Positions 1 to 48,353 of a stretch of DNA of 64,000 nt are shown in pieces (position 1 is the first letter of the stretch; every line of letters starts with the position of its first letter). Source of the stretch: a virus (taxonomy: Duplodnaviria; Caudoviricetes). Position numbers and translations under genes: made by a program. The stretch lies in the IMG/VR virus record IMGVR_UViG_3300031867_000005, positions 32,001-96,000 of that record. One strand, given 5' to 3'. The notes beneath the pieces were generated by a model. The model searched no databases. It was not told the origin of the DNA and worked only from the letters and a program-made list of their open reading frames with translations.

Positions 1-3000
1 GGCAGATTTCTCAACTGCTACCCAATAGATGACAGCGGCTTAATAAACACGCAAGGTCGCTTTAAAATATTTTAATTGCTGGAAAGTTCTTAGAGATGAT
101 AAAACCACAACATAAAAAGAAATTTTAAGTGTGAAGGTTTAAAAATTTATCAAATTGAATAATCAGCAGCGAAGAATCTATTCTAGATTAACGTTCAACG
201 ACTATCCCGTAATGGGAGTAGAATTTAAGTAAATTCGAAAAGGATATGAAAAAGATATAGTCTAAACTTTAAGGAAACTTAAAGCAGTTCATAAGAGAAC
301 GCATTGGAATTAACGACTTCAATGGAATGTAAATGTTGCGTGGTTTCCATATGGAAATGGATGAAGGCGCACGAGTAACCGACGTATATTCTGAATTAGC
401 AGCCCATGCGGCAGCGGATGTAAATGGTATCGCTTATGCGATGAGTAAAGCGGCATCAATTGGTGCTTAAAATGTTCAAATTGCTGGAACACCTTAAAGA
501 TTATTATGCTAAAAGTTTTTTAAAACTAATGCGGCGAAAGCAGAAACAAATAATAATATGGCATATGGAATGATTAACCTAAGTGCTTTATAATAGGCAA
601 TCAGCAGCTAAATGGAGGAGAAAAAAATGAGATTTGAAGAAAAAATAAAATATGTGTTTGATAGTAATGATATTACAATAATAGAATTAAAAGGCGAAAA
701 GGAAAAGATTAAGTATTTTTGTAATTGCTGTAATAAAGAGTATGAGTATAAATGTGCAAGAAATCTTTTTTCAAAAATAAGTCTTTGTAAGGATTGCTAT
801 AATCCTTTTTCTCGTTGGAATAAAGAGAGCATTCAAGATAGGCTAAATAAATTATTTCCAGAATCTTAGATTGAAGTAATTGAATTTTTAGGTCTAAGAA
901 AAGGTGGAAAAGTTAAATGTTTAAAATGTGGAACAATTGAAGACGTGAAGAATTTTGATGCTCTCTTTTGTGCTAGAAAAGATTATTTTTGTAATAATTG
1001 TGAGAAAGAATTGAATAAGATTTATAAACATATGGAAGAGGAATTAAACTTAGGATACTTAACTTTGTTGTCGTGGAATGGGGTTAATAATAAGAGTAAG
1101 TTTAAATGTAATAGATGCGGTCATGTGTTTGAGAAGATTGTTAATAGGAAGTTTAGTGGGAAGATTTGCCCTAATTGTTCAAAGGTTTGTAATAAGTTTT
1201 CTTTTGAAGAAGGACAAGAACTTTTGAATAGAAAAGGGAATAATGAGTATACTCTATTATAGTATGCTGGCACAAATAAGAGAAGTTTAATTAGACATAA
1301 ATGTGGATTTATTTATTCGACAAGACTTCTTAATTTTGAAAACACTAAAGGTTGTCCTAAGTGTTATAAAAAGATTTCTAAAGAAATATTATCTAATCAA
1401 TAATATTGCTTTTAATTTCTCCAAAATAAGTTCAACGACTATCCGAAAGGAGTAGCTTCAAGTGAAGCGAAGGAACATTGAAAAAAATATAGTCTATTCT
1501 TTAAGGAAACTTAAAGCAGTTCATAAGAGAACGCATTGGAATTAACGACTCCAATGGAATATGAAAAAACAATTGCAAATAACGCTGGTATGAGCTTCGA
1601 AACGACAGCAGCGTTTATAACTAATATGATAGAGACGACATAGGAGGCACCCAGAGACCAATCGGGAGTCAGACTCACAGTATGCCTCAAAAACTTAACT
1701 TTTGTTTCATTTTGTGATATACTAATAGTAGAAAAATGAAAAAGAGGAGTGATAGTTATGGCATATGGATATGTCTATTACAGTAAGAATGAAATAAATG
1801 GAAAAATGTATATCGGAAAGGTGACGGCGCAAACTCTTTCTTCTAGGCCCAATTATCGTGGTAGCGGTATAGATTTGAAAGAGGCATTGGAGGAATATGG
1901 AAGTAAAAACTTCTCAATACATTTCCTCGCTGAAGCAAATAGTAGCGAAGAATTAACTCAATTAGAAAAATATTATTTAATTTACTATAAAATCCCAAAT
2001 GAAAATTTTTATAACATTAATCTTGCTACTTCTAATAGTGAGCAATCAAATTACTTTAATAAGAATAATAAGAAAGGAACTAATTTAAGAGATATTATTT
2101 GTTATAATATAAAAACAAAAGAAACTTATGTATTTAATAATTTAATACAATTTTGTAGAGAACATGGCTTTAGTCGTGGATGTATTTTTAATGTAATGTC
2201 TGGACAAAGAGTTACCCATAAAGACTGTGTTTTTTGGTATTCTGATTATCCCATATCCTCTGACGCATTAAATTGGATTATTAATTACAAATTAAAAACC
2301 ACTTATAAAACGAAATACATAAAGATTGCAGAAGTTAAAGAAGAATTAAGTAATTGCTACAAAAAAGCCCAAAATAAGCTTGAAAAATTCGAGTTCCACG
2401 GATATTATATAGAAGATAATAAAGAGATAAAAATTGACTGGAAAGAACTTGAAAAATTTCAAAGTTTAATTTATAGAGATGGAGAATCTCCAAAGCCAGA
2501 AAAAGTTATTGATACAGTAGAACTCAATACAGAAGATGATAAAAAATTTGAGGATATAACCCGTCCTCATGAATATGTATTGGTTAGTAAGGACCACACT
2601 TTATATTTTTCCTATAATGAAATCAATAATTTAACAAAGATATACACAGACCTGTCAGCTCGTCTAGTTAGACAGGCAATTAATAGAAAACAGAAAACTG
2701 TAATGAACAGAAAATATCAACTGATTATTCTCGATTGAGGGCACATAATAAGTAATTATTATGTGAACTGCATTGAATTGACGGGAAACACCTTAGAGCT
2801 TTTGCTACTAAATAATATTAGTAATAATATTACGGTAAAAGATAACGCTTTTAGTATAGTAAAAAAGCAAAAGATTGGTCAACCCGCAGCCGAGTCCCAT
2901 TACTACTAATGGAAACAGGTTCAACGACTATCGGAAATTTTGCCCCGTTAGGCTTCAAGTGAAGCCGAAGTAATGCACCTCTTTTTGAAGAGGAAGATAT

Positions 3001-6000
3001 AGTCTGAGCATATAGGGAAAGTCTATAGCAGCCTTTTAATTAAGGCGAGGTAGATTAACGACCTACCTGAACATTACTGGAAAACATCAACACTGGTGTC
3101 CTTATGGTATAATACATAAACCATAATGGAAAAATTCTCTCTGATTGACTTGGACATCCAGAAGTGGATTACAGGGCGGAAGCTCATCGAATTTATTCGA
3201 GTAAGCACCGTGAACGACTGAGTGAGAGAACCCCATTTCGATGGGGATGCGACAGTCTCATCTTTGGTATAACTTAAAAAAAGAAGCCAAAGGCACTATA
3301 TGTGCGGCTATTTAAGATTTTCTTTAAATGGCTAAGGTATTGCGGTACGGCTTTAAAGACTATTAACTAATAGTAGTCTAAAAATCTTCTTAATTGCTGG
3401 AAAATCCTTAGAGTCTATTAGACCTAAACAATTACGAAAGTGTTGACAATTTAATTTTGAATTGTGGTAAAATATTTATAGAATTGGATAATCAGCAGCT
3501 AATCTGCTAAGGAGGAGTTTTAATTAAAAATGAGTGAAAGAAAAATTATAATTTTAGATGGAATTGAGTTTGATTATTATATATATTCCGATGGGAAATG
3601 CTAGAATAAGATTACAAATAATTTTTTAAAAGGGTCTATTAACAATGGTTTCTTAAATTATTATCTAAGAAAAGGAAAAATCCAAAAGAACATAGCAGCA
3701 CACAGACTAGTGGCTTTAATGTTCTTGGAAAACCCAAATAATCTTCCAACTGTTCAACATATTGATGGGAATAAGTTGAATAATAATGTTGATAATCTGC
3801 GTTGGGTAACTTACTCTGAAAGTTCGAAGAAAGCAGATCACTCTCACGTTAAGAACAGTCGCCCAGGTTATAAGTATTATACAGAATTAGAGAAAATTGA
3901 AGGGGAAGTGTGGGAACAATACAGAGATACTCATTTATATTTTTCTAATCTAGGAAGACTGAGGAATAGTAAGACTAATAGATTGTTAGTATAGCATACA
4001 TCAAAAGAGGGATACAATTATTATTCCCCAAAGCTTGATGGAAAGACAAAGAAAATTCTTACTCACCGTGGAGTTTATGAAAGTTTTTATAAGATTGAAC
4101 TGAAAAAAGAAGATTAGATTGATCATATAGATGGGAATAAGAAGAATAATAATTTAGAAAATTTAAGACTATGCACAGCATAGGAAAATTGTTTTATATA
4201 GATCTGAAAGATTAAAGAAAACTCCCTAAGCGGCAAGTTCAACGACTATTGGTGATGAATGTAGCCAAGTAAAACCTTTAGGTTTAAAAAAGGAGACATC
4301 TATAGTATAGATGAAGATATAGTCTAATCCCTTGCAAATATCTCGAAAGAGAGGGTAGAAATGTATAGCTAGATTTACAGAGCTAAAAGAAAACGTAGAT
4401 GCGTCTGAATCAGAATTTGATGATTTAGATTACAATAAGGTAGATAAAGCCTTAAAAAGTGTGGGCATTTCAATTAAAGATGCCCAAGGACAATTTAGAG
4501 ATTTGGACGACGTATTTCTTGAGTTGAGTTCTAAATGGGATTCTTTATCGAGAAATACACAAAGATATATTGCAACTATTGCGGCTTAAATTACGGGTCG
4601 CATTAAACCCTTTGAATTGCGGGGACTTAACTTAATTCTAGAATACTAAGCGTTCATCAACGTGGCAATGGGTAATTCCAAAGGTAAAGTAAAAAGTTTT
4701 AGAATGTTATAATCCGCAGCTAAGAATTAATTATCAGAATGGTAATTGATTAAAGTTCAACGACTATCGAAAACATAGTATAAGAGAAAGACTTATATGA
4801 AGAAGTGAGTAGAGTAGGATTTAAAAAAAATCCGAAGTGGAGGGCAATTATTTATTGGTTACAGAGAAATAATTGAAGATATAGTCTATATTTAATAAAT
4901 ATGGGTAGTAGACAACAATCACGTTTTATTGCGATTTCTTTAGAAGTCTAATTACATAGTAATATGTAATTAAAGCTCTTTGAATTGCTGGAAAATCCTA
5001 AAGCTAATTATACTAAAACAGAAGGATGAGATAAGCCTAAATGGAAAAGTTACGAAAGTAGAAAAAAATAATTAGATAATATATGGTGTAAACCTAAGTA
5101 TTACTAAAAATGGATAATCAGCAGCCAAGCTTTGATGAGGAGAAGGTTCAACGATCATTCGTAAGAAGTAGGGTTCAAGTGAATTCGAAGTGGAGAGCAT
5201 CCTATTGAGTATAAGTAGGATGAAGATATGATCTATACTTTATTGAAAGATAAAGAACAATTTATAGTTGTTTTTCTAGATTAACAAACTAGGAATAATA
5301 TATTAGGATGGAAGACTACGACAGAACAATGGAACTCGTAGAAACAGCACAAGATTCTGCTGGAAAGAGTTCTGAACAGTTTGCAAAATATCAAGACACA
5401 TTAGAGTATAAATTAAATCAATTAAAAAATACATGGGAGCAAATTAGAACAACCTTTATTAATAGCAATTTCTTTAAAGATGTTGTTGATATGGCAAATG
5501 ATGCTTTAGGTAAAATAGCAGATATTGATTTACAAAAAGCTTTACCTCTTGTTGTAATGATAACGCCATTAATAAAAAGGTCTATTGAAATTATTTCAAA
5601 AGGTTTTATGGATAGTGCAAATACTTTAGGAAAAGTTGGAAGTGTAATAGGAAAGACCTTAGGAGAGAAGTTAAATAAAACATTAAAGGATACAACGCAA
5701 AAACTTAATAACTTAGAGGTAAAGCTTAGTCTTAACCAAGCAGCTAAGAAAAAACTAGAAAAACAGATTGATGAAGTTAAAAGTAAACTGAAAGAGTTAT
5801 AGTTAGAAAAAAGAATATAGAATAATAGAAAATCAAATATAGAACAAGAACTTGATAAAATAAAAGAAAAAGAAGAAGAACTTACCACTTCTATGAAAGA
5901 AAATGCGGGAAAAAGAGATCAAATTCAAAAAAGAATGGCATAGCTTAGTGAGTCAGAAAATGGAAAAATAACTGAAGAATATAAGAATTTAGAAAAAGAA

Positions 6001-9000
6001 TTAGAAGAATTAACCGCAGAGTATGGGAATTTAGATAGAGAAAGATATAAAGCATAGAACACAAAAGATGAGGAAGCTCGTCTTTTAACAGACGTAGAAG
6101 ATTCCTTAACAACGTTAGATGAAAGAACGGAACAATATGAAGGACATTTAAGTGAACTAGAAGGAAGTCTTGGAGATGTAAATGAGAGACTTGAAGAATA
6201 GTAGGATGCAGCGGATGAATTGAATGAAAATGAAGAGCTTCTTAATGAAAGTGCTAAAAATGCATCCGATGCCTTGACTTTAGCAGGAACTACTATTGCT
6301 GGAGTCACTACAGCTTTACTTACGGGAGCAAATGCAACTGATACTTTTAAAACCGGCATGTTATCACTCGGCATTGCATTAGCTGGAATGGTTACTAAAA
6401 TAGTCAATTTCGGAATTGAAGCAGCGGTGGCTGCCGCAGTAAGTGGGGAAAGTATTGGAGTAGCTCTTGGAGAAGGACTAAAAAATGGCTTTATTGCAAC
6501 GAAAGTCGGCATTATTATTGTGGCTGCTGCAGCTGCACTTGTCGCTTTAATTACAGGAATTAAGGCTTATATGGAATTTTATGATAGATAGCATAAAACA
6601 ATAGAATAGCAACTAAAGGATGCGGAAGAGTCCTTAGAGGAACTTGAAAAGGTGGAAGCTGAAAAAAGTAATAAAGCGAGAGACGAGGCAGAAACTTATA
6701 AAAGTACCAAAAGTTTAATGGAAGAATATGATGAATTAAGTAAGAAATTAGTAAAAACGACCGAAGAACAAGAAAGATGGAATGAATTAATAGGAGAAAT
6801 AAATGAACAGTTCCCAGAAATTATAACTTCTTATGACGAAGCTAATGGCAAAATTACTTTACAAAGAGATTTATGGTAGGAAATTAACGATTTACAAAAG
6901 GAGTCTGCTTAGCAAGCTCAAATGGAGGCTAGTGTAGCTGGTTCGGCAACAGTTGGGGAAAAGAGAAGGATTGCTAATTTAGAGTTATCTTCTGAATTAG
7001 ATAAACGACATCAGACTTAGAAATCTATTAATGCACTAAAAAATATACAAAATAGTGATTATTTTGTTCTTTCTCCTGAAATGATAAAAAACACTTTTTC
7101 CAATTCTTCTCTTGCAAAAGAATATCAATAGGCTTACAAAGTTGATTTCTCTAAATTAGATGATGCCGGATGGTAGCAATTTTATAAGAATATACAAGAT
7201 TAGAATTCAGAAGGGTGGAAGACGTTATAGAAGTATCTTGATAATATAGAAGAAAAAGCAACGGATGCTTATAATCAATAGACAGCATACTATGATACTC
7301 TTGAAAAATAGAATATCTCTTCTTATTTATAGTCTGGAGGAACAGATTCTAATGTTGCCAATTTTGTGGCATCTGGAGCATATAATAAAAGAGGTTCCAA
7401 TAGTAATAAATATAATATTACGACTCAAAGTTTGGATGCTAAATCTGGATTTTTTAATAACGTCCATAATGATTACGTAGAATGGAAGCAGTTAACAGAT
7501 GATTAGAGAGAAATCCTTACAGCTATGAAAAAAACAGAAGAAGAGTGGAATAAAGAAAGGATAGATTTAGTAGATGATGCTAATTTTAATGCACAATACA
7601 GAGAAGCTGTAAAGATTTACGACGCTAATAAAAGAGCAGAGGAAATAATAAAAGCACTAAATGACTCTTAGGAAGCTTTTATTCAAGATTATATGACAAA
7701 TTACTCCTCAATGACAGAACAAGAAATGACTGTTGCTGAAGAAACCATTAAAGGATATATAGAAGGACTTGACAATGACTTAAGGGAAACTGGTCTTAGT
7801 TCATTAGCTGAATGGAAAGCAGATTTTGACTAGCAGAAAAGAGATATAGCTACACAAGTATCTAATATCTTAGATAAAGACTGGACAGATTTTTAGAATT
7901 GGACCATTGATTAGCTTTCTGCTTACAATACCCTACTTCAAGATGCGTTTAATGAATTCGGTTAGGGCGGTGGAAAAGAATACGTACAAGGACTAAATAG
8001 TCTTTTTGACGGGCTTGATCCAAGTAAAATAAACTAGGCATTAAATGAAATCAATTGGGATACTGCAAATGCTATAAACTGGGAAGAATTTAGAAAAACT
8101 TCAATTGAAAAATTGAAAGAACTAGGCATTCCAGGTGCAGAAGCCTTTTTTGATGAATGGGCTGAATATGAACAAAAATTTGGACATTTAAGTATAAGTT
8201 TAATAGATGAAGATAAAGTTGAGGAATATCTTGAAGGAATAAAAGAAAAAGTAGACGCAATAAACGGAAGTCGTGGGGATATTGCAGAGCTTGCCGCAAA
8301 AGTTAATTAGGGCATAGCATTAGATTATGATGAATATGCAAAATATGCTAAAGCTATTGAAGAAATGGGATTAACTGTTGAAGATTATCTTAATATTGAT
8401 GCAGATGGAAATATTTTAGCGAACGCAGAAAAAGTTTAGACTTTGTGGCAAGATGCTTATCAATAGTAGATCACAGATATTGAAACATAGATAAGTAATC
8501 TTGACGAAGAATATAGGATATAGTTAAATCAAATAAACGCAACACATGAGAGAAATCTTGAAGAAATAGAACTTTTAGAAATAATGAGTGAACAGACAAA
8601 AGAGCAGAAAAGATAGGAAGCAAGTTAGCATAGAATGATAGCGAATAACCTTAGAGCAGAAAAGAGATACACTTTTGCACATGTTCATGATTCAGAAGCA
8701 AAAAGAATAGAATAGGAGATAAATGGGTCAGTAGAAAGTGAAAAGAAAAGACAAGAATTAATAGATGCAGAAAATCAACGATGGGAAAATCAAAAGCAAG
8801 GCTTGATGACAGGTCGAGAATCAGCAAGACTGACTTTAGCCAAAGAACTAGATCGTTATAGAAAAACATACAATGCAGCATTTAAAGCATACCAAGAAGA
8901 TAACAAAAATTCTAATGACAAAATATTAGAAGATTAGAAAAAACTATTAGAAAACGTCGAAAAAGCTAACGAAGACTATGCAAAAACAGTTGAAGATAAT

Positions 9001-11124
9001 TAGCAAAAAGTTGCTGATGCTTGGGAGAAAGTTGCTGATGCTCAATAGAAAGTTCAAGATTCCTTAGATTAGATTACAGAAAAAGAGCAAGACGTTATCG
9101 ATAAAACTAAAGAATTAAATGATATTATATATGGTGATGGGACTTATCGTAGTTCTCTTGACCCAATGTATAACTATAACAATAGACTCGACTCAATAAA
9201 TGAAAGACTTAGTGATACAAAAGACGCTTTAGATAACTTAAATCCTTATGAAGATCCATAGCAATATATTCAATAGTATGAATAGTTGGCTCACGAAGGT
9301 TTTGTTAATCGAGCTGCTTAGAGAGAAGTTTATTAGGGAAGAATTAATAATACTTGGAATGCCGCCAATTCTGGACTATCAGATTTAATTGCAAGACAAA
9401 ATGCTAAACATGGCACTAATATGGAAGCAGATTTAGGAAAATATATTTTATTTGATGGCGAAGCATATGGAATTGATTTTAGTTACTAGGGTGCATCGGT
9501 TAATGATGAGATAAAGAAATTCTTAGAAGATCAAGTTAATATATTAAATGATAGTGCAAAGAAAATTAAGGAATTAAATAAAGCAGATAAAGAATAGTTA
9601 AAACAAATGGAAGAAATGAGAAAAAGTGCGAGAGAAAAAATAATTTCAATTGATGAGAGCTATGCTAAATATTTAGAAGACCAGGCTAAAAAAGAAGTTG
9701 ATATTGAAAAAGAAAAATATGATTCCATGAAAGAAGCTAATGATGATTATTTGTCTGCACTAGAAGACGCAATTAATAAAGAAAGAGAGTTAAGGCAAAG
9801 ACAAGATGAATGGGATAAACTTGCAACAAAAGAGAAAAAATTATCATTAATGCAAAGAGATACTTCTGGTGCTAATTAGAAAGAAATTTTAACTTTGGAA
9901 TAGGAAGTTCAAGATGATAGAGAAAAATTATTAGATTCTTCAATTAATGACGTTATTGATTCTATGAAAGAGTTATACGAATTATAGCAAGAAACAAGAG
10001 AAATGGAATTGGAATATCAAGAAAAAGTCCTCGAATCAACCAATTGGATGAAGTTAGCAGAAGAAGCTAGAAATGGAATTAATAGCGTAGATGAAGCAAT
10101 TGAAATGTTTACTAAGACAGCCTTAACAGAATATGGAGATAATATTAAAACGATTGAAGACTTAACTATGGAATAGAAAGAAGAATTGCTTGCAAAAGCA
10201 CAAGAGACTGTAGGCGGAATGATAGCTAGTTAGGAAATATTAAAGAGTAATATTAATAGTTCAGTTGATTAGTTAGGTAATGATATAGGAGTAATTACTA
10301 ATGTAACAGCTGAAGAAGTTAGCTCAACTATTCTTAGCACAAGTGAGAATTTAACTTCTGAAGCCGAGTATAATTTGTCATAGGTAGAGACTGCTGTTGA
10401 TGATGCAATTACAAAAGGAGAACAAGCTCTTACAGATGCAATTAAAGAGGTTTAGAATGCTAGGGATAATTATATTAGTGCGTTAGCAGATTTAGAAGAA
10501 GCCTAGAAAGAAGCTAGAGAAGCTGAAGCAAATGCTCGTGAGGCCGAAGGAGCTGCAAATGAAGCAAGACAACAGGCTTTGGCAGACGCCGCTTAGTATG
10601 ATGCTTTGAAATAGAAATATGGTAATTTTAATGATGATGACCGTATTAATGTAGATACTCTTAGTTCAGACCAATTGAGAGCAAATATCTATGCAGCTAT
10701 GGGAATGGCTGGCGGGACTGAATTTTTAAATGGAAAACCCTCTCCTGATGACCAAAGAAGAGTTCTTAGAGGATATCCAAATTATTATGAATCCGGCGGC
10801 CTTGTCGATTACACGGGTCCAGCTTGGGTTGATGGAACACCTTCAAAACCAGAAGCTTTCCTATCAGCAGAAGATACTCAAAGAATTGGATTTGCCGCAC
10901 AACTCCTCTCTAAAATTCCTCTCCTTAGCAGCGACGACTTTGACAACGTATCAACTTCAATTACAAATTCTTCCGTTACTAATGAAGGAAGTTTAATAGA
11001 AGTTCACATTAATATAGAGAACATTTCAAACGATTTAGACTTAGACAATGCATTAGACAGAATGAAAAATGCGATTTGGGATGCTGCAAAACCAGCTGGT
11101 TCAGCTGTAATTCTTTCAAAATAA
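1..11124 (+). CDS. Tape measure protein, 5'-partial, spliced and TAG-recoded. Predicted exons: <1-40, 336-456, 1570-1652, 3080-3087, 3343-3363, 4364-4586, 4904-4935, 5307-11124
   Basis: Joined exons keep frame and read ADFSTATQQMTAA-LRGFHMEMDEGARVTDVYSELAAHAAADVNGIAYAMSKAAS-IANNAGMSFETTAAFITNMIETTQEAP-ENI-GTALKTI-IARFTELK...RYIATIAA-GSRQQSRFIAM-MEDYDRTMEL, resembling a TP901-type tape measure core. ORF-track fragments 5308, 6220, 6652, 8113, 9607 and 10675 share one frame, interrupted by TAG where I checked, ending TAA 11122-11124. Coiled-coil and transmembrane-like segments present. Confidence 0.9.
41..335 (+). mobile_element. Group I intron 1 of tape measure gene (no ORF)
   Basis: P1 GCGGCU/GGUCGC with U.G pair; core elements AATTGCTGGAA, AATCAGCAG, GTTCAACGACTA, AAGATATAGTCT; terminal G335. 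Confidence 0.9.
457..1569 (+). mobile_element. Group I intron 2 of tape measure gene, ORF inserted in the P6 region; 3' splice site ambiguous (1569 or 1575)
   Basis: P1 GGCAU/GUGCU; core AATTGCTGGAA, AATCAGCAG, GTTCAACGACTA, ATATAGTCT; 3' domain nearly identical to intron 1. Confidence 0.82.
627..1403 (+). CDS. Intron-encoded multi-zinc-ribbon protein (258 aa), probably a homing endonuclease lacking its C-terminal nuclease domain
   Basis: GGAGGAG RBS. ORF-track pieces 612 and 945 join through TAG 867 and 1260. Repeated CxxC pairs; ends CPKCYKKISKEILSNQ. Confidence 0.75.
1653..3079 (+). mobile_element. Group I intron 3 of tape measure gene, with GIY-YIG ORF ahead of the ribozyme core
   Basis: Core at ~2740-3079 (AATTGACGGGAA, AACCCGCAG, GTTCAACGACTA, AAGATATAGTCT); terminal G3079. 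Splicing restores EAP-EN. The 5' exon ends in C rather than U. Confidence 0.8.
1749..2738 (+). CDS. GIY-YIG homing endonuclease (intron-encoded)
   Basis: N-terminal GYVYYSKNEINGKMYIG motif followed by NUMOD-like repeats. AGGAG RBS; upstream TG-A-TATACT extended -10. Confidence 0.85.
   Translation: MIVMAYGYVYYSKNEINGKMYIGKVTAQTLSSRPNYRGSGIDLKEALEEYGSKNFSIHFLAEANSSEELTQLEKYYLIYYKIPNENFYNINLATSNSEQSNYFNKNNKKGTNLRDIICYNIKTKETYVFNNLIQFCREHGFSRGCIFNVMSGQRVTHKDCVFWYSDYPISSDALNWIINYKLKTTYKTKYIKIAEVKEELSNCYKKAQNKLEKFEFHGYYIEDNKEIKIDWKELEKFQSLIYRDGESPKPEKVIDTVELNTEDDKKFEDITRPHEYVLVSKDHTLYFSYNEINNLTKIYTDLSARLVRQAINRKQKTVMNRKYQLIILD
3088..3342 (+). mobile_element. Group I intron 4 of tape measure gene (no ORF; core sequence differs from the other six)
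   Basis: P1 ACAU/GUGU; core GTGAACGACTGA...GCGACAGTCT, P3 TTCTCTC/GAGAGAA; terminal G3342. Splicing restores ENI-GTALKT. Confidence 0.82.
3364..4363 (+). mobile_element. Group I intron 5 of tape measure gene, carrying an HNH ORF
   Basis: P1 AGACUAU/GUAGUCU; standard P/Q/R/S core; terminal G4363. Splicing restores KTI-IARF. Confidence 0.88.
3530..4207 (+). CDS. Intron-encoded HNH homing endonuclease with two tandem HNH units (225 aa)
   Basis: GGAGGAG RBS; motifs HRLVA...VQHIDGNKLNNNVDNLRW and HRGVY...IDHIDGNKKNNNLENLRL; open frame if TAG=Gln; ends TGA. Confidence 0.85.
4587..4903 (+). mobile_element. Group I intron 6 of tape measure gene (no ORF)
   Basis: P1 UGCGGCU/GGUCGCA; core AATTGCGGGGA, AATCCGCAG, GTTCAACGACTA, AAGATATAGTCT; terminal G4903. 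Confidence 0.88.
4936..5306 (+). mobile_element. Group I intron 7 of tape measure gene (no ORF)
   Basis: P1 GAU|UUC...GAAGUC; core with compensatory P7 change (GACGATCA-type R, GATATGATCT S); terminal G5306. Splicing restores FIAM-MEDY. Confidence 0.85.
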
Positions 11125-11159: not shown

Positions 11160-11176
11160 CTTAAGAGGTGAATAAA

Positions 11177-13669
11177 ATGCAAGATTTCACAGGTTTTCGT
11201 TTTGGTTAGGTTCATTCTGAAGACCTTCATTTAATCGTTGTTAGTTCAAGTAATAGGTATATTAAGACTTTATTGCCTACGCTCAAGGACCATACAACAG
11301 AAGTCCCTGGCGGCAACGGGTCTTATTACTTTGGACAAACTTTTTCGACGCAAGAATTTACTTTAAATATTGCTTTTGATTCAGTTGGAGAAAGAGATTG
11401 GAGAAGAATTTCAAATTTATTTAGTAATGATAAGCCACAAGACTTAGTCTTTGATGAATAGCCATTTAAAACATATAGAGCAAAATTAAAATCAAAACCA
11501 GATTTTAAATTCGTTTGTTTTATTGATAAATCAACTGGTGAACGAATTTATAAAGGTGAAGGAACTTTGAATTTTATTTGTTATTACCCTTATGCTTTTG
11601 GATTTAATAAATACGTAGTCAGGGCCGCGGATTATTATAAATGCTTATAGCCTTCTCAAATTTTAACAGGTGCTGTAAGTCAAAATCCTTATGAAGAAAA
11701 AAGAAAAAGAGAAACAAACTTATGGGGGACTAAAAAGTTTTATAATGTGAATTAGAATATGAAAACTCCTTGGAAAGGAGGCTATCCATCTTTAGAGCAG
11801 GTTCAACAAGGTGAATTATATTTTAATGACCCAGTAACTAATAAAAGAACTATAATTGATACTAGAAGTTATTTTAATAACATTCCCGAATGGGAAATTG
11901 CCGCAAAATTACTTTATACGCCAACTTTAGATTATGATAGAGATTTAATTTTTATGCCTTAGTATAGTAAAACTAATTACTATAATATGGATTTAGGATT
12001 AACTAGAGAAAATGGAGTTATAGGAAGTAGATTATTAGTTTATAACCCTGGCGATGTCCCAATCGATTTTGAACTTAAATTAACTGGAATTTTTCAGAAG
12101 CTTAGAAATTTTGATTAGCATGATAAAGATTATTATAGATTTAGAATTAGTCGTTATAACGTTCAAAGACTAACTATTGAATAGGCTGTAGATTGGTGCG
12201 GCCTTACTACTCATGATAGGGATGAAAATATTAGCTATAAGTATGGAACTAGATATTTTACGATTTTAGAAAATGATGGTGAAGGAAATATTATTAAAAG
12301 AGATTTAAATAAATCACATCCTGAACACACTTATTATGTTGAACCAATTCCGAGAGAAAAATTAGGAGATTTTATTCGTTCTTTTTATTGGCAGACAATG
12401 TAGATTCAATAGTCTTGGAATGAAGATGGCGATTGTCTTGATTTAGGAGATTTGTGTGACTTTTGGGAGAGGGGAAAAGAGTTTGCGAATCAATATGAAG
12501 AATATAGAGAGTAGTGTATTTCAGAAGAGGAAGAGTTTGAATTATATTGGGATACTTTAGATAAAGCTATACTATCTTTATATGAAAAACATTTTCTTGA
12601 TGAAAAAGGAGAGGCTAAAATTCCTTTCTTAACTTACAAATAGTTTAAAGATAATTATATTAATAGAGGTCCTGAATGCTTATATGATGTTAAAGATAAT
12701 AGATATTATGGAGAATATAATTTTAATTTATACACAATCCCAGAGTATTATACTGATGATTATCTTGAAATAAATAATAACGATTTTGACAAAATTCTTA
12801 AGCATAATTGTAATAAAAAAGATTGTAATAGGTTTGTAGAAGAATCCAATTCATCAACTATTAAACCTCTTTTCATTGACTCTGAACGCAGAATGGTGTA
12901 TAATATAAATGAGCCAGAAGTAGATTCAGATGAAAAATTTCATAATTTTTATAATTTTAAACCATCAAAGATTATTTTTAATGATAATATAGAAAGAGGT
13001 CATTGGTTCAAAATTCCGCCAGGCTGGTCTTTAATCGATATAACTCCAATTATAGATGAAGACATGTGGAATAGAAAAAGATGGAATGAAGCAAGACCGT
13101 TTACTTGGGGTGAATCAAATGAAGAATTTAGAATAACATTTGATAAAGCTTATGAACAAGCCGCAAGAAATTATTTATATGAGAATTATGATAGAATTAA
13201 TAATTCCAATTTAATTAAAGAAATTTGGGGAATTACTCTAAATGATAAGGATGAAGACATAACACCATCAATAATTAATTCAGATAAAAGAAAGAAAATT
13301 AAAGAGGAATTAACCCTTGAAGAAATTGAAAGACTAATGCCTTTTAGAAGATGGTTTAATGATAGTTATTATGAAGTAGCTTATGGAGAAGAAAAAGCTA
13401 ATTAGCTAGAAATAACTGACCGTCTTAATACATTCAAGAATAAATTATTAAAAAGAGAATTAACAAATATTGAGTATGGTTTTCTTAAAACATTAAATGA
13501 TTATTGGAGAGTTTCAAAAACTGATATAAATGGATTACCAGCTGGCACAATTGATGATTGGTATTGGTATGCAAATAGTTACATATGGGCTAACTTTCCA
13601 CCAGTTTTTTGGGCTTATACAGATTTATTAAATAATGCACAAATAAAATATACTCCATTATTTTATTAA
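11177..13669 (+). CDS. Distal tail (Dit)-like protein with large insertions, ~830 aa
   Basis: Directly follows the tape measure gene. N-terminus MQDFTGFRFG...LPTLKDHTTEVPGGNGSYYFG, internal VYNPGDVPIDF, C-terminus IKYTPLFY. ORF pieces 11273, 11759 and 12893 share a frame and join through TAG. Confidence 0.75.
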
Positions 13670-16600: not shown

Positions 16601-19515
16601 ATTATAACGAAGAATATGATAAAATTTCTAATTTAATAATAAATCTGTCTTCTCAGTCTTTTACTGAATTGGAAGCTAATGTTAAAGTAAATATAGATGG
16701 CATTGAAGCAGCGCAAAAAGAATTATATAAATTAAAAAAATAGGCAGATAAATATAAAACTCTTAATAAAACTATTGAATTATAGCAAGAAATTAGTAAT
16801 AGTAAACAAGAATTAATAAATAGGTATAATGAAGCATATCAAATGAGTATTTAGCAGATTACAGAAGAAATTAATAGTTATACAGAAGCCTAGAAAGAAA
16901 AATTAAAGGAAAAAGTAGCTGAAAGAACTGCGTATATAAAATGGGCTTAGGAAATGTTAGATAAAGAAATATATAAAAACTATATTTAGCAAGCAGAACA
17001 AATATCAATTGATTTTTCAATTATTAGTAAATTGAAAGATCATAAAGTTCCACTTGATTATATAAATTATTTAGAAGAAGAAACATTAAGAATTAATCAA
17101 TTAATAAATAGTGCCCAAAATCAAACTTATTTAAATTATTTAGTTAAAATTAATGAGCAAGTTGCTATTATAAATTAGCTAACAAAAGAATTAATGTGTG
17201 ATGAAAATTATAATTTTGAAAATTTTTTAAATAATAATGAGACTATTTCTGATAATCTTTATGATAAAATTTTTGGAAATTTACCAATTGCAGATTTTAA
17301 AGAAACGGATTGGTATAAAAAACATACATATTTGAAATACGGAATGCTAGGTCAATATAACAGAGAATACCAACAAATTCAAGAGTGGCGAAAACAATAG
17401 GCTGAACATTTGAAATAGATAAATCTTCTATCTTATAGATTTTTCCAAAAATATGAACCTTATTTAAAAGAGGGAACTTGGAGTGATAGTAATTATTTAA
17501 CGGATAACGCATACTATTTCGGGGCGAAAGAAGTAGCCACATAGGGCGCTATTCCAAAAATTGAATATAACATTTCAGTAATCGATTTACAAGATTTACC
17601 AGAATATGAAGAATATGACTTTGATTTAGCTGATACAACTTATGTTGAAGATATAGGTATGTTTGGAATAAATGAGAAAACAGGATTGCCAAATAGATTA
17701 AAGGTTTTAATTTCTGAAATTTCTTACGACTTAGATTAGCCAAAGAATAATTCAATTAAAGTATAGAATTTTACAACTTAGTTCGAAGACTTATTCCAAT
17801 AGGTTAGTGCTTCTGTTTAGTCACTAAGCTTTAACGAAAATATATATAAACGTTCTTCTAATTTTACTTCAAATCAAAGTATTAAAGAAGAAAGTTTATA
17901 GGGAGCATTAGACAATAATAATGTAACTTTATTAAAAACACAAGAAAATAATATTGAATTAGACGCAGAAGGACAATTTGGAAGTGATATAAATAATCAT
18001 AGCAATAAATATAAATTAAATGGATAGGGAATGTTTTTCTCTAATAATGGCGGCCAAAGTTGGGAAGTTGGTGTTGGTCCTAGTGGTATTAATGCTGATT
18101 ATATAAAAGTTGGAACTCTTGATGCTGGCAAGATAAAAATTGTTGATAATGATTATTTATATTTTTTATGGGATAAAGGTGGCATTTTTTCCTTTAGGGA
18201 GCCATAGTCATAGTCAACAAGTGAAAAAATAAATTTTAATGATTATGCCGTTTTTAATAAACATGGGCTATCATTAATTGAAAATGGAAAAATTAGATTA
18301 AGAGCTGGATATAGTAATGTTGGAGAGAATGGTGTCTATAATGTTGAAGATCCAACAACTGGAAATATAGGTTTTTATTTGTTTGATAATTCAGGAAAAC
18401 CTATTTTTTCTACCGAAGGTTCACCCACTGAAGAAGGTGATAATTATAGTGCTAGAATATTATTATCAGGTGAGATGTTAGCATCGGCGACGGCAAATGC
18501 TAATCAACAAATAGAAACTTTTTATTATACTAAAAAACTTTAGCTTATAACCTTAAATATTAAATACACTAAAACGCAAGAAGAAATTATAGTTGAAAAT
18601 ACAGGAGATCTAGAATCATTAGGCACTGCTAATGTTTTTAATGATACAGAAAAAAGCTCTTTCGTTTCCATAGGACTGCATCGATACAATGATATATATT
18701 GCTTTACTGAAGGTGGTAAGTATTATAAATTATTGATTGATAACAGCGTATATATATATTTTTTGACAACTATCAAAGATGGAGAATTCTATCCACCTGA
18801 TAACCAAGATTTAAGTAATGCTTATGGGATAACTTATTATGACAACAATGGACGGAAAGTAGAAACTTATAAGAATACATCTTATCAATATTATGAAATT
18901 GAAAATAATATTAAGATAATTTTATTAGATCGACATTCAAAGTAGACATCAAGTGGAAATACGACAATTTCAACAGGAGTTTTTATTAATAATAAAATTA
19001 TGAATCCTAATGATACAGATGAAGACATAAGGCTTTTTAGTTGCGTTTCTCTTGATAATAAAAGAAAAATAAATAATCTTTTTACAGTGTATAGAGACGG
19101 TCGCCTAATGATAGGAGGAAATTTTGAAGGAGAAGCTGATGACATAATTTCAATTAATGATAAATTACATTGGGATGAATCTAATTAGAGTAATACTATT
19201 AGAATTAAAGATGGACAAATGTATTTAGGAAACGACTCATTAACGAATATGATTAGTGGAGCTGCGGCAAGTCTTCCTAGGCACAGTCATAGTTTTAATA
19301 GACATAATGATTATTATCGTTTTTCTAATGATGGCAGATCGCCATTAACAGGCGAATATAATACTTATTCAGTCGAGCTTGTGATTCCAATGAAGGATTC
19401 CAATGGCAATCCGGTGAATGATCCCAATAATAATCCCGTAACATCTTCAACAACTTTATATATACATGAATATCTGGACGATAGCACAGATTATACCGGA
19501 GAGATAGGAGGTTAA
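13684..19515 (+). CDS. Large tail/baseplate protein (Tal or central-fibre type), ~1940 aa
   Basis: GTG start with GAGGTG RBS. Nine ORF-track fragments (14101 to 19219) share one frame. Tail-type motif GINADYIKVGTLDAGKIKI; position after Dit. Confidence 0.75.
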
Positions 19516-46131: not shown

Positions 46132-46160
46132 AGTATATCATAATTTTTATAATAAGTCAA
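46132..46160 (-). promoter_or_regulatory. SigA-type promoter of gyrA
   Basis: TTGACT-N17-TATACT with TG extension. Confidence 0.7.
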
Positions 46161-48353
46161 TCATCTAAATCTTCAAAATTTGCATTTTCAAAAATATAAT
46201 TGCGTCTTTCTTCTATATTTTCTCCTAATAAAATATCAAAATACTTTTCTGCGGCCTCAGCATCATTCATAGTGAACTGAATTAGACGGGGTTCTTTTGA
46301 ACAGATAGTTGCCCTAAAATCTTGCGGAGTGCTTTCTCCCAAACCTTTCAATCTGGATATATCACCCTTAGGCAAGGACTTCAGTTCTTCTTCATTATAA
46401 GCATAATAGCACTTCCCCTTTGATTCAACCTTAAAGAGAGGGGTTGCACCCCAATAAACTTTTCCAGCTTGAATAAGTTGAGGATAGAACTTATATAAAA
46501 AAGTTAAAATCAAGCAATTGATGGAGAACCCGTCCTTATCCATGTCTGCGACCAAAACAATTTTCCCATATCTTAATTTCTTTAGATTGAAGTTAGGTCC
46601 ATATCCGCACCCCAAAGCTATGTGAAGCTGTTTTACCTCTTCATTCTTAGCAAGCTTCTCTTTATCATTTTTAAGGGCATTGATTAACTTACCTCTTAAA
46701 TCGAAGCAGGCGGTAGTCATAGCATCTCTTGCTTTTACGATCGCACCCTTGGCCGACTTTCCTTCTACGACGAAAAGCATTGAATTTTCATCATGCTTTC
46801 TACAGTCAACTAATTTTTCAGCTAAAACTACTTTCTTTTTAAGTTCCTTTTCAATCTCCTTATTCTGTTGCAAAATTGCCTGTCTTACCTTATCAGCTGC
46901 TTTTTCTGCTTTCTGGAATTTCTTCATCACCTCAATAACTCCAGAAAAATCAGGAGTATGAGAAAAGTCTTCCAATCCCTCTTTAAAGGCCGCAGAAGCA
47001 AGAGTCCTAAGATTTGCGTTGTTAATCTTCGATTTTGTCTGGTTAGAGAAAGATGGATTTGCAACCTTACAGTTGATCGCATAGACTAAACCCTTACGAA
47101 TCAAATCTGGGTCAAAATCTTGTCCACTTAATCTTTTAATTGTGTTGGTAATAGCAGTCTTAGCTCCTGTAATGGGAGATCCACCCTCAGGCACGACTAA
47201 CCCGTTGACAAAAACGTAAGATTTCTCTTGGCCACCAGTCCAAATGAAAGCAATTTCAATTTCATCAGAATCATCTTTCTTTGAAACAATAATTGGAGCT
47301 TTCATCATTGGCTTACTAAGCTTTTCAGCAATAAAGTCAGCAATACCATTCTTTGAGTAAAATTCCTGTCTTTTTCCAGAAACAGTTTCTACAACAAATT
47401 TAATTCCTTTATTTAGATAGGCAATGTTCTTAATTTCTTCACAAATTCTATCATAAGAAAATCCTTCCGTCATATTCTTGAAAACCTCTTTGTCTGGTTG
47501 AAACATTACATATGTGCCAGTTCCATTTGTAGGGCCGGCTTCTTTTTCAAAAGTTTTAATATCTGTTTCTGAGTAGTTTTCTAAGTTACCTTCGAAGAAA
47601 GAAGCCTCGGCAACTTTTCCATCTCTGAAACTTCTTACCATGAAGTGCTTAGAACTCATACATACTGCAGTGCCACCAATCTTTTGTGTTCAGTAGAGGT
47701 CGCTACTCTCTACTCGGGACTATTACCCAGCTTATAGTTTCCTATAAGAACAGACTATATCTTCTTAGACTCCTTTTTCGGTTCGCTTGAACCTAATTAC
47801 TCAAACACTACAAGTGTTCTTTCAATAGTCGTTGAACGTTCATCAATTAACTTGATGCTTCGCTGCGGGTTATCCAATCCTTAATAATTTTTACCATACC
47901 TCGGTCATTACCCTCGCCATGATAATATTGCTACTATCATTTGGTTATTAAGGCTCTAAGGATTTTCCCGACAATTTAAGAGTTTTTACAACGGCTATGG
48001 TGTTAACCGTTTAAACCTGAACTATTTTTATAAGCATTTTTATCAAACTTACCGCCAGTATGAGCTTCGGTATAAATGGCAACAAGTATATTTCGACCGT
48101 CAATAATGCCAAAAGGCACGCCACGACCTAAATCAGACACTTCAACAGTACTATCTTCCTCATTTAATCTAACTCGAATTTCCTTACCATACCCAGCTAA
48201 CGCCTCGTCTGTTGAGTTATTAATAATTTCTTTTAAAGCCTGATAAATGCCCTCCGTATCATCTGAGCCGAGATACATGGGAACTCTACTTCTTATGGCC
48301 TCTCTGGTTTCAAGGTGTTGGATATTCTCTGCACTATACTTACTTTCAGCCAT
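46157..48353 (-). CDS. gyrB: Type IIA topoisomerase subunit B, spliced (exons 48353-48006 and 47680-46157)
   Basis: EIINNSTDE, DLGRGVP, HTGGKF, junction SGLNG-IGGTAV; TOPRIM VEGKSA, LRGK, DMDKDG, RLKGLGE. Confidence 0.92.
47681..48005 (-). mobile_element. Group I intron in gyrB (no ORF)
   Basis: P1 AACGGU/GCCGUU; core AATTGTCGGGAA, AACCCGCAG, GTTCAACGACTA, AAGATATAGTCT; terminal G. Confidence 0.9.

Follow-up and report, generated by a model that had tools for sequence, protein, structure and literature searches.

Eight predicted group I introns crowded into the conserved core of the tape-measure gene of an uncultured TAG-recoded gut siphophage

How can a tail gene yield one protein when its most conserved segment is present in the DNA as a series of exons, the shortest of them 8 nt long? 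This question is raised by the beginning of the stretch studied here, bases 32001-96000 of one 178,685-bp contig (these 64,000 nt are called the window, and negative positions lie upstream of it). The region is the conserved core of a tail tape-measure gene of the PF10145/TP901 type, carried by an uncultured gut siphophage of ~179 kb in which TAG is reassigned to glutamine (Gln). The initial annotation of the window described seven group I introns in this gene and suspected more upstream. Eight group I introns are found within 590 nt of coding sequence, seven of them in the window; the suspected upstream intron exists, is 1,257 nt long and carries an HNH gene, and the window itself starts within exon A, which begins 61 nt upstream. 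It is very probable, in our assessment, that eight independent group I introns invaded the tape-measure core, that nine exons join into an mRNA for a protein of 2,619 aa and that the introns were spread by homing.

The exons were located by protein homology. The first 130 residues of the open reading frame (ORF) 5308-11124 were used as a query and recovered two classes of relatives, one of 2,400-2,680 aa with PF10145 and one of 1,820-2,060 aa without it. Four full-length relatives were mapped on the genome with tblastn, and the resulting blocks are strictly colinear. The blocks of one of these relatives, P0002, and the exons are as follows.

-2737 to -1319, upstream of the window: tblastn block of P0002 residues 6-476
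-61 to 40 (3' part at 1 to 40), plus strand: exon A, 102 nt, encoding LDTAEAL...QQMTAA; tblastn block of P0002 residues 477-510, 94% identity
336 to 456, plus strand: exon B, 121 nt; tblastn block of P0002 residues 511-552, 89% identity
1570 to 1652, plus strand: exon C, 83 nt; tblastn block of P0002 residues 553-578
3080 to 3087, plus strand: exon D, 8-nt micro-exon GAAAACAT, giving E, N and two bases of I
3343 to 3363, plus strand: exon E, 21-nt micro-exon, encoding (I)GTALKT(I), where homologues have GTAMKTI
4364 to 4586, plus strand: exon F, 223 nt; P0002 residues 589-662 (tblastn block 4365 to 4586), 88% identity
4904 to 4935, plus strand: exon G, 32-nt micro-exon, encoding GSRQQSRFIA(M), identical to P0002 residues 663-673 (tblastn block 4904 to 4936)
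5307 to 11124, plus strand: exon H, the final tape-measure exon, ~1,939 codons, of which 56 are TAG read as Gln; P0002 residues 674 onward (tblastn block 5308 onward)

The eight residues missing between the blocks (P0002: ENIGTAMKTI) are supplied by GAAAACAT at 3080-3087 together with the 21 nt at 3343-3363. Exon D, flanked by G3079 and ending in U3087, produces the context ...EAP-ENI-G..., which is the EAPENIG of intron-less homologues. Joining of the nine exons restores one frame of 7,860 nt with its sole stop at the end (2,619 aa when TAG is translated as Gln), as is expected of group I introns that interrupt a gene. The seven junctions of the initial annotation (40/336, 456/1570, 1652/3080, 3087/3343, 3363/4364, 4586/4904 and 4935/5307) all withstand this comparison, leaving one open frame that is gapless to intron-less homologues. 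The predicted in-frame splicing into a tape-measure core is likewise supported, as the 290-aa core that extends over every junction aligns with P0002, P0003 and P0010 without a gap and at 90-91% identity, compared with ~44% for the full-length tape-measure proteins. The orthologous DNA of a related contig, L012, is intron-less and contiguous through all eight intron sites. Within the same core, the TAG of exon C (1641-1643) lies opposite CAG (Gln) in L012, and this alignment indicates that TAG is read as Gln; late genes of the phage are rich in in-frame TAG, and its replication genes are devoid of it. The residues encoded by the micro-exons of 8, 21 and 32 nt, which the initial annotation had already proposed, match those of intron-less homologues, and judged by this homology the micro-exons are real. 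Readings of the locus as a twintron or an intein were rejected, since the exons are ordered and required by homology, and coding bases demanded by the homologues separate every neighbouring pair of introns.

Assignment of the gene to the PF10145/TP901 tape-measure family follows from its domain core, its PHROG families and its position. Exon F matches positions 151-192 of PF10145 (E 5.3e-7) with 30.2 bits against a cut-off of 33.2 bits, the score falling short through the scoring of a fragment alone; PF10145 is present in the full-length homologues, which are named ‘TP901 family phage tail tape measure protein’. The ORF 5308-11124, which under TAG=Gln encodes 1,938 aa and is devoid of the N-terminal third of the protein and of the PF10145 core, is matched by the PHROG tape-measure families phrog_4211 and phrog_34405. 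A Sipho_tail (PF05709) gene is located downstream at 11168-13669.

The sequences between the exons were searched with the Rfam covariance model RF00028 and inspected for the paired regions (P) and joining regions (J) of group I ribozymes. The introns are listed below.

-1318 to -62: intron 0, 1,257 nt; RF00028 50.4 bits; HNH endonuclease gene inside
41 to 335, plus strand: intron 1, ORF-less and IA2-like, 295 nt; RF00028 48.3 bits, E 4.8e-10; U40.G55; ends in G335
457 to 1569, plus strand: intron 2, group I, 1,113 nt, ORF in the P6 region; P4 motif at 479, P7 motifs at 1430 and 1485; ends in A1569 (non-canonical)
1653 to 3079, plus strand: intron 3, group I, 1,427 nt, ORF near the 5' end; RF00028 55.6 bits, E 4e-12, at 2721-3028; ends in G3079
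3088 to 3342, plus strand: intron 4, ORF-less, 255 nt; second ribozyme lineage with group I topology
3364 to 4363, plus strand: intron 5, group I, 1,000 nt, ORF in the P6 region; P4 motif at 3392, P7 motifs at 4237 and 4315; ends in G4363
4587 to 4903, plus strand: intron 6, ORF-less and IA2-like, 317 nt; RF00028 44.9 bits, E ~6e-9; ends in G4903
4936 to 5306, plus strand: intron 7, ORF-less and IA2-like, 371 nt; RF00028 62.2 bits, E 4e-14; U4935.G4946; ends in G5306

The covariance model detects introns 0, 1, 3, 6 and 7 at E values of 1e-7 to 4e-14. Introns 2 and 5 are matched in part, the former through its 3' half only (1389-1516, 28.5 bits, E 4e-4) and the latter weakly (4176-4351, 21.1 bits), because an endonuclease ORF placed between the P4/P6 half and the P7-P9 half breaks the alignment to the model. 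Each of the seven IA2-like introns contains P4, J6/7-P7 and J8/7-P7' in this order, one copy of each motif. The 3' half of intron 2 resembles intron 1 (86% identity over 141 nt), and an intron located at a different place in the genome also shares 83% identity with intron 1 over 170 nt. By motif order and identity the seven IA2-like introns are to be regarded as paralogues, and intron 4 as unrelated to them. The P3-P9 core with its P3/P7 pseudoknot is thus found in the introns, in intron 4 by means of covariation, and the seven separate ribozymes claimed for the window are borne out by the RF00028 matches, the core motifs and the intron 4 alignment.

The nature of intron 4 requires separate consideration. 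It folds better than its shuffles (z -4.1), and in the phage database it has only one relative, located between the halves of a split P22-like coat-protein gene of an unrelated phage (MW202674), in which a search with RF00028/Rfam gave no group I match. The core motif of intron 4 is, in addition, present in 23 IMG/VR contigs (L017-L039); the coat-gene relative just mentioned lies at L016:2500-2716. Covariation was evaluated on 15 distinct sequences of this type, with the elements in the order P3-P4-P5-P6-P7-P3'-P8-P7'-P9. In the alignment 98.4% of cells pair and 10 pairs are changed on both sides (compensatory); the covariation score is 0.237, in comparison with 0.091 in shuffles (none of 500 reach it) and 0.02-0.04 with slid partners. 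The pairing and covariation indicate that intron 4 is a structured RNA with group I architecture, belonging, on these alignments, to a lineage outside the coverage of the Rfam model. There is accordingly a gap in Rfam, a widespread second ribozyme family of group I topology being invisible to RF00028.

Since the junctions had been fixed beforehand by protein homology, agreement of the P1 helices with them constitutes an independent check. Small folds of the eight 5' junction regions showed that in introns 1, 2, 4, 5, 6 and 7 the exon ends in a U that pairs with G, exactly at the homology-derived site (U40.G55, at the GCGGCU that ends exon A; U456.G463; U3087.G3096; U3363.G3373, in a 9-bp P1 with z -3.6; U4586.G4596, z -3.9; U4935.G4946). 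A guide helix had originally been assigned to each intron; it is clean in six of the eight, and introns 0 and 3 have no U at the 5' site. At a site common to intron 5 and an intron of the related contig L009, a synonymous exon change from ACU to ACA is matched by a change from A to U in the guide. It was also observed that introns 1 and 6 share the exon/guide pair GCGGCU/GGUCGC (35-40/55-60 and 4581-4586/4596-4601), both in codon phase 0; a cross-reaction between them would delete codons 519-670 in frame, and the same duplication is present in L009.

The number of introns in the core differs widely among relatives: none in L012, two in L014, three each in L011, L013 and L015, and about eleven in L009 and L010. 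In the last two contigs ~eleven group I cores are found at the same coordinates (6129-10030), with micro-exons of 20, 14, 17 and 21 nt; a colinear exon walk showed that the contiguous DNA of L014, a sister of L009, equals the L009 exons joined. The variation from 0 to ~11 introns among close relatives with the same protein indicates that the introns are dispensable. Dispensable and polymorphic, and situated in the most conserved part of the gene, they bear the signature of homing elements (as in PMC2504315). Among 120 related cluster representatives, ~35 begin 3-93 residues before the YDRTMEL motif, and such a start marks them as last-exon ORFs; one contig of this type originates from a pig gut metagenome. 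Gene callers detect no more than the final exon, and related tape-measure genes are systematically mis-annotated.

Four of the introns carry nuclease genes, and these genes together with the presence/absence polymorphism place them among homing introns.

Intron 0: HNH ORF with NUMOD domains, no TAG
612 to 1403, plus strand: intron 2 ORF, 263 aa, zinc-ribbon nuclease, two in-frame TAG
1749 to 2738, plus strand: intron 3 ORF, 329 aa, GIY-YIG-like homing endonuclease, no TAG
3530 to 4207, plus strand: intron 5 ORF, 225 aa, HNH homing endonuclease, five in-frame TAG

The intron 2 ORF is matched by phrog_681 ‘endonuclease’ (6.8e-17), phrog_559 ‘HNH endonuclease’ (1.7e-16) and zinc-ribbon Pfam families, and no relatives of it were found in IMG/VR. 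For the intron 3 ORF, matches to phrog_314, phrog_7168 and phrog_19446 ‘homing endonuclease’ are accompanied by a GYVYY...MYIGK motif, and the intron 5 ORF matches PF13392 HNH_3 (9.6e-21) and phrog_59 (2.1e-49). With respect to the genetic code, the four intron ORFs (612-1403, 1749-2738, 3530-4207 and L002:12799-13626) fall into two without TAG and two with 2 and 5; synthesis of the TAG-bearing endonucleases of introns 2 and 5 would have to await the reading of TAG as Gln, late in infection.

The proposed mechanism assumes that on the late transcript every intron would form a ribozyme of its own and would be excised by two transesterifications, in which an exogenous G attacks the 5' site in P1 and the freed 5' exon then attacks the 3' site. 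The nine exons, including those of 8, 21 and 32 nt, would in this way be joined into one mRNA for the 2,619-aa protein. The endonucleases (two HNH, one GIY-YIG-like and one zinc-ribbon) presumably cut intron-less alleles of co-infecting relatives, and the cut would lead to copying of the intron, and probably of close neighbours too, into the intron-less allele; we infer such co-conversion for the ORF-less neighbours, as we infer the splicing and the homing. The position of the pile-up would be explained by conservation, since no other stretch of the gene is nearly as conserved and none would offer as good a homing target. Most likely, then, selfish elements have accumulated in the most conserved gene segment. 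The load of ribozyme and endonuclease DNA that a virus can tolerate inside one essential late gene amounts here to ~6 kb.

Several observations weigh against this interpretation. The base before the 5' site is A, paired with U, in intron 0 and C, paired with G (C1652 with G1664), in intron 3. A terminal G is found in seven of the eight introns, the exception being intron 2 with A1569. In model group I introns such changes of splice-site bases slow or block a step, and one or more of the introns might be spliced inefficiently or only with the aid of a protein. The RF00028 scores of introns 1 and 6 fall short of the gathering threshold, and when intron 4 is run alone, RF00028 does not detect it. 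The genome is, furthermore, known from a single metagenomic contig.

The 3' end of intron 2 was considered in detail. The 456/1570 junction slides within a duplicated CAATTG and has no terminal G as drawn; the nearest G (1563) leads to a UAA stop, and no slide of the junction combines U at -1 with G as the final intron base. An intron end at G1563 with U456 as the 5' site was rejected for this stop, and G1563 combined with other in-frame 5' sites was rejected for 3-5 extra residues absent from all homologues and for the lack of a P1. The site (1563-1575) is backed by a 6-bp P10, in which CAAUUG 457-462 pairs with CAAUUG 1570-1575. An intron of L009 (L009:8407-8618) also has a terminal A with P10 support, its junction being fixed by the contiguous sister L014, and this layout is present in two independent assemblies. 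As far as the exons and their homologues define the sites, two introns of the clade must end in A, not in G, for a functional mRNA to be formed. For introns 0 and 3, a one-base slide of the junction keeps the protein and loses the terminal G, and was rejected. The non-canonical bases, if the introns splice, would offer natural material on the strictness of the U.G and terminal-G rules.

These irregular bases are the ground for the view that the introns are of group I and at least one of them (candidates are 0, 2 and 3) no longer splices, the gene being a pseudogene of a defective phage or dependent on a maturase or another helper. The A and C at -1 of introns 0 and 3 and the A at the 3' end of intron 2 speak for it; the nine exons, however, are intact and in frame, contain no frameshift or stop and remain at 90-91% identity to functional-looking homologues, the same terminal A recurs in a relative assembled independently from two samples and resolved by an intron-less sister sequence, and the P10 supports the intron 2 site. 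Loss of splicing is, on balance, improbable. Even less credit can be given to a mis-assembly in which repeated intron sequences were joined into false tandem copies: introns 0, 1 and 2 do share 3' parts at 86-87% identity, and there is one contig, but each intron lies between different exons in the exact order of the homologous proteins, the introns are mutually distinct and a layout of this kind recurs in relatives from independent samples. An artefact of this kind is scarcely conceivable.

A functional role of the arrangement has also to be weighed. The tandem introns and micro-exons might be maintained because the timing or the amount of tape-measure protein is set by splicing that is ordered or slow, or by the skipping of exons; the initial annotation had put forward a timer of tail assembly. 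There are documented cases in which a short exon lying between tandem group I introns is skipped: the 23-nt exon of Twort orf142 and a 34-nt exon in Coxiella as far as the account in PMC10136302 goes, and an exon of a Bastillevirinae polymerase gene that is skipped in 47% of transcripts (PMC11878797). The GCGGCU/GGUCGC pair shared in the same phase by introns 1 and 6 would be compatible with such regulation. Against it stands the range of 0 to ~11 introns among relatives, L012 and L014 making the same protein with zero and two. The frame is retained on loss of the 21-nt exon only, skipping of the 8- or the 32-nt exon shifting it, and the conserved target, endonuclease genes and paralogous ribozymes are what selfish spread predicts. 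The timer is therefore very unlikely, and accumulation of homing introns is the reading retained here. Ordered splicing had been deduced from an overlap of P10 of intron 3 with P1 of intron 4 on the 8-nt exon. A P10 by which intron 3 would pair with the beginning of this exon was looked for and not found, and P1 of intron 4 takes only its last 4 nt and two intron bases, leaving the overlap a conjecture.

A more far-reaching proposal can be formulated, to which we give only tentative credence, holding it rather doubtful. The tape-measure core of the clade would be a hot spot of 8-11 tandem ribozymes, some of which ligate after a terminal A where G is near-universal, with the 3' site set by P10, and exons of as little as 8 nt would be the 3' exon for one ribozyme and the P1 substrate for the next. 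Pattern searches of IMG/VR for other copies of the intron 2 3' end or of the exon D/intron 4 boundary found none, and a scan of a single metagenome with those boundary patterns returned 15 chance matches with no downstream ribozyme core. If true, the proposal would provide a natural system for relaxed 3' splice-site recognition and for the interplay of neighbouring ribozymes on one transcript.

Group I introns occur elsewhere in this genome as well, with a total of at least 11. One (RF00028, 64.5 bits) at 47731-48015 on the minus strand splits a gyrB-like gene into an HATPase_c exon (48003-48353) and a remainder with DNA_gyraseB and Toprim (46157-47659). Two strong ones, L001:6495-6712 (98.9 bits) and 18491-18785 (86 bits; genome coordinates), lie between TAG-rich late ORFs without a Pfam family.

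How does the locus compare with known systems? One of the closest is Twort orf142, a late structural (tail) gene into which several tandem IA2 group I introns are inserted. PMC10136302 and PMC11878797, citing Landthaler & Shub 1999, describe three introns there, two of which are separated by an exon of just 23 nt. To the extent that these accounts describe it, Twort differs from the present case, in which eight introns share 590 nt of coding sequence, the smallest exons measure 8, 21 and 32 nt, the ribozymes belong to two lineages and four of the introns carry endonuclease genes; splicing was demonstrated in Twort, whereas here it is predicted from sequence. In Bastillevirinae, group I introns also carry endonuclease genes, and alternative splicing accompanies tandem introns, but they reside in nucleotide- and DNA-metabolism genes and terminases, unlike the tape-measure gene considered here (PMC11878797). 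The introns TMP-IVS1, IVS2 and IVS3a/b of Bacillus cereus-group prophages share with the present ones the tape-measure gene family and IA-type ribozymes, as well as the adaptation of related introns to their sites through P1 in a conserved target (PMC2504315). That study reports three sites in total and fewer introns per gene and does not mention micro-exons, while the ~179-kb TAG-recoded phage has introns at eight sites simultaneously (PMC2504315). Fungal mitochondria offer a parallel in a conserved gene filled with group I introns that bear endonucleases and delimit micro-exons: cox1 of Agaricus bisporus has 19 introns and cDNA-confirmed exons down to 3 nt (PMC2987802), so micro-exons of such size can be spliced. 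Cox1 is, however, an organelle gene with large introns (>1 kb) and protein-assisted splicing, in contrast to the phage gene, four introns of which are small (255-371 nt) and ORF-less (PMC2987802). The mechanism of group I homing introns is thus familiar. The extreme density suggested from the outset holds in this comparison: with eight introns packed into 590 coding nt and one exon of only 8 nt, this phage structural gene is far more densely occupied than, and surpasses, the published phage cases found, which as described in these sources reach three introns with a 23-nt exon and three insertion sites.

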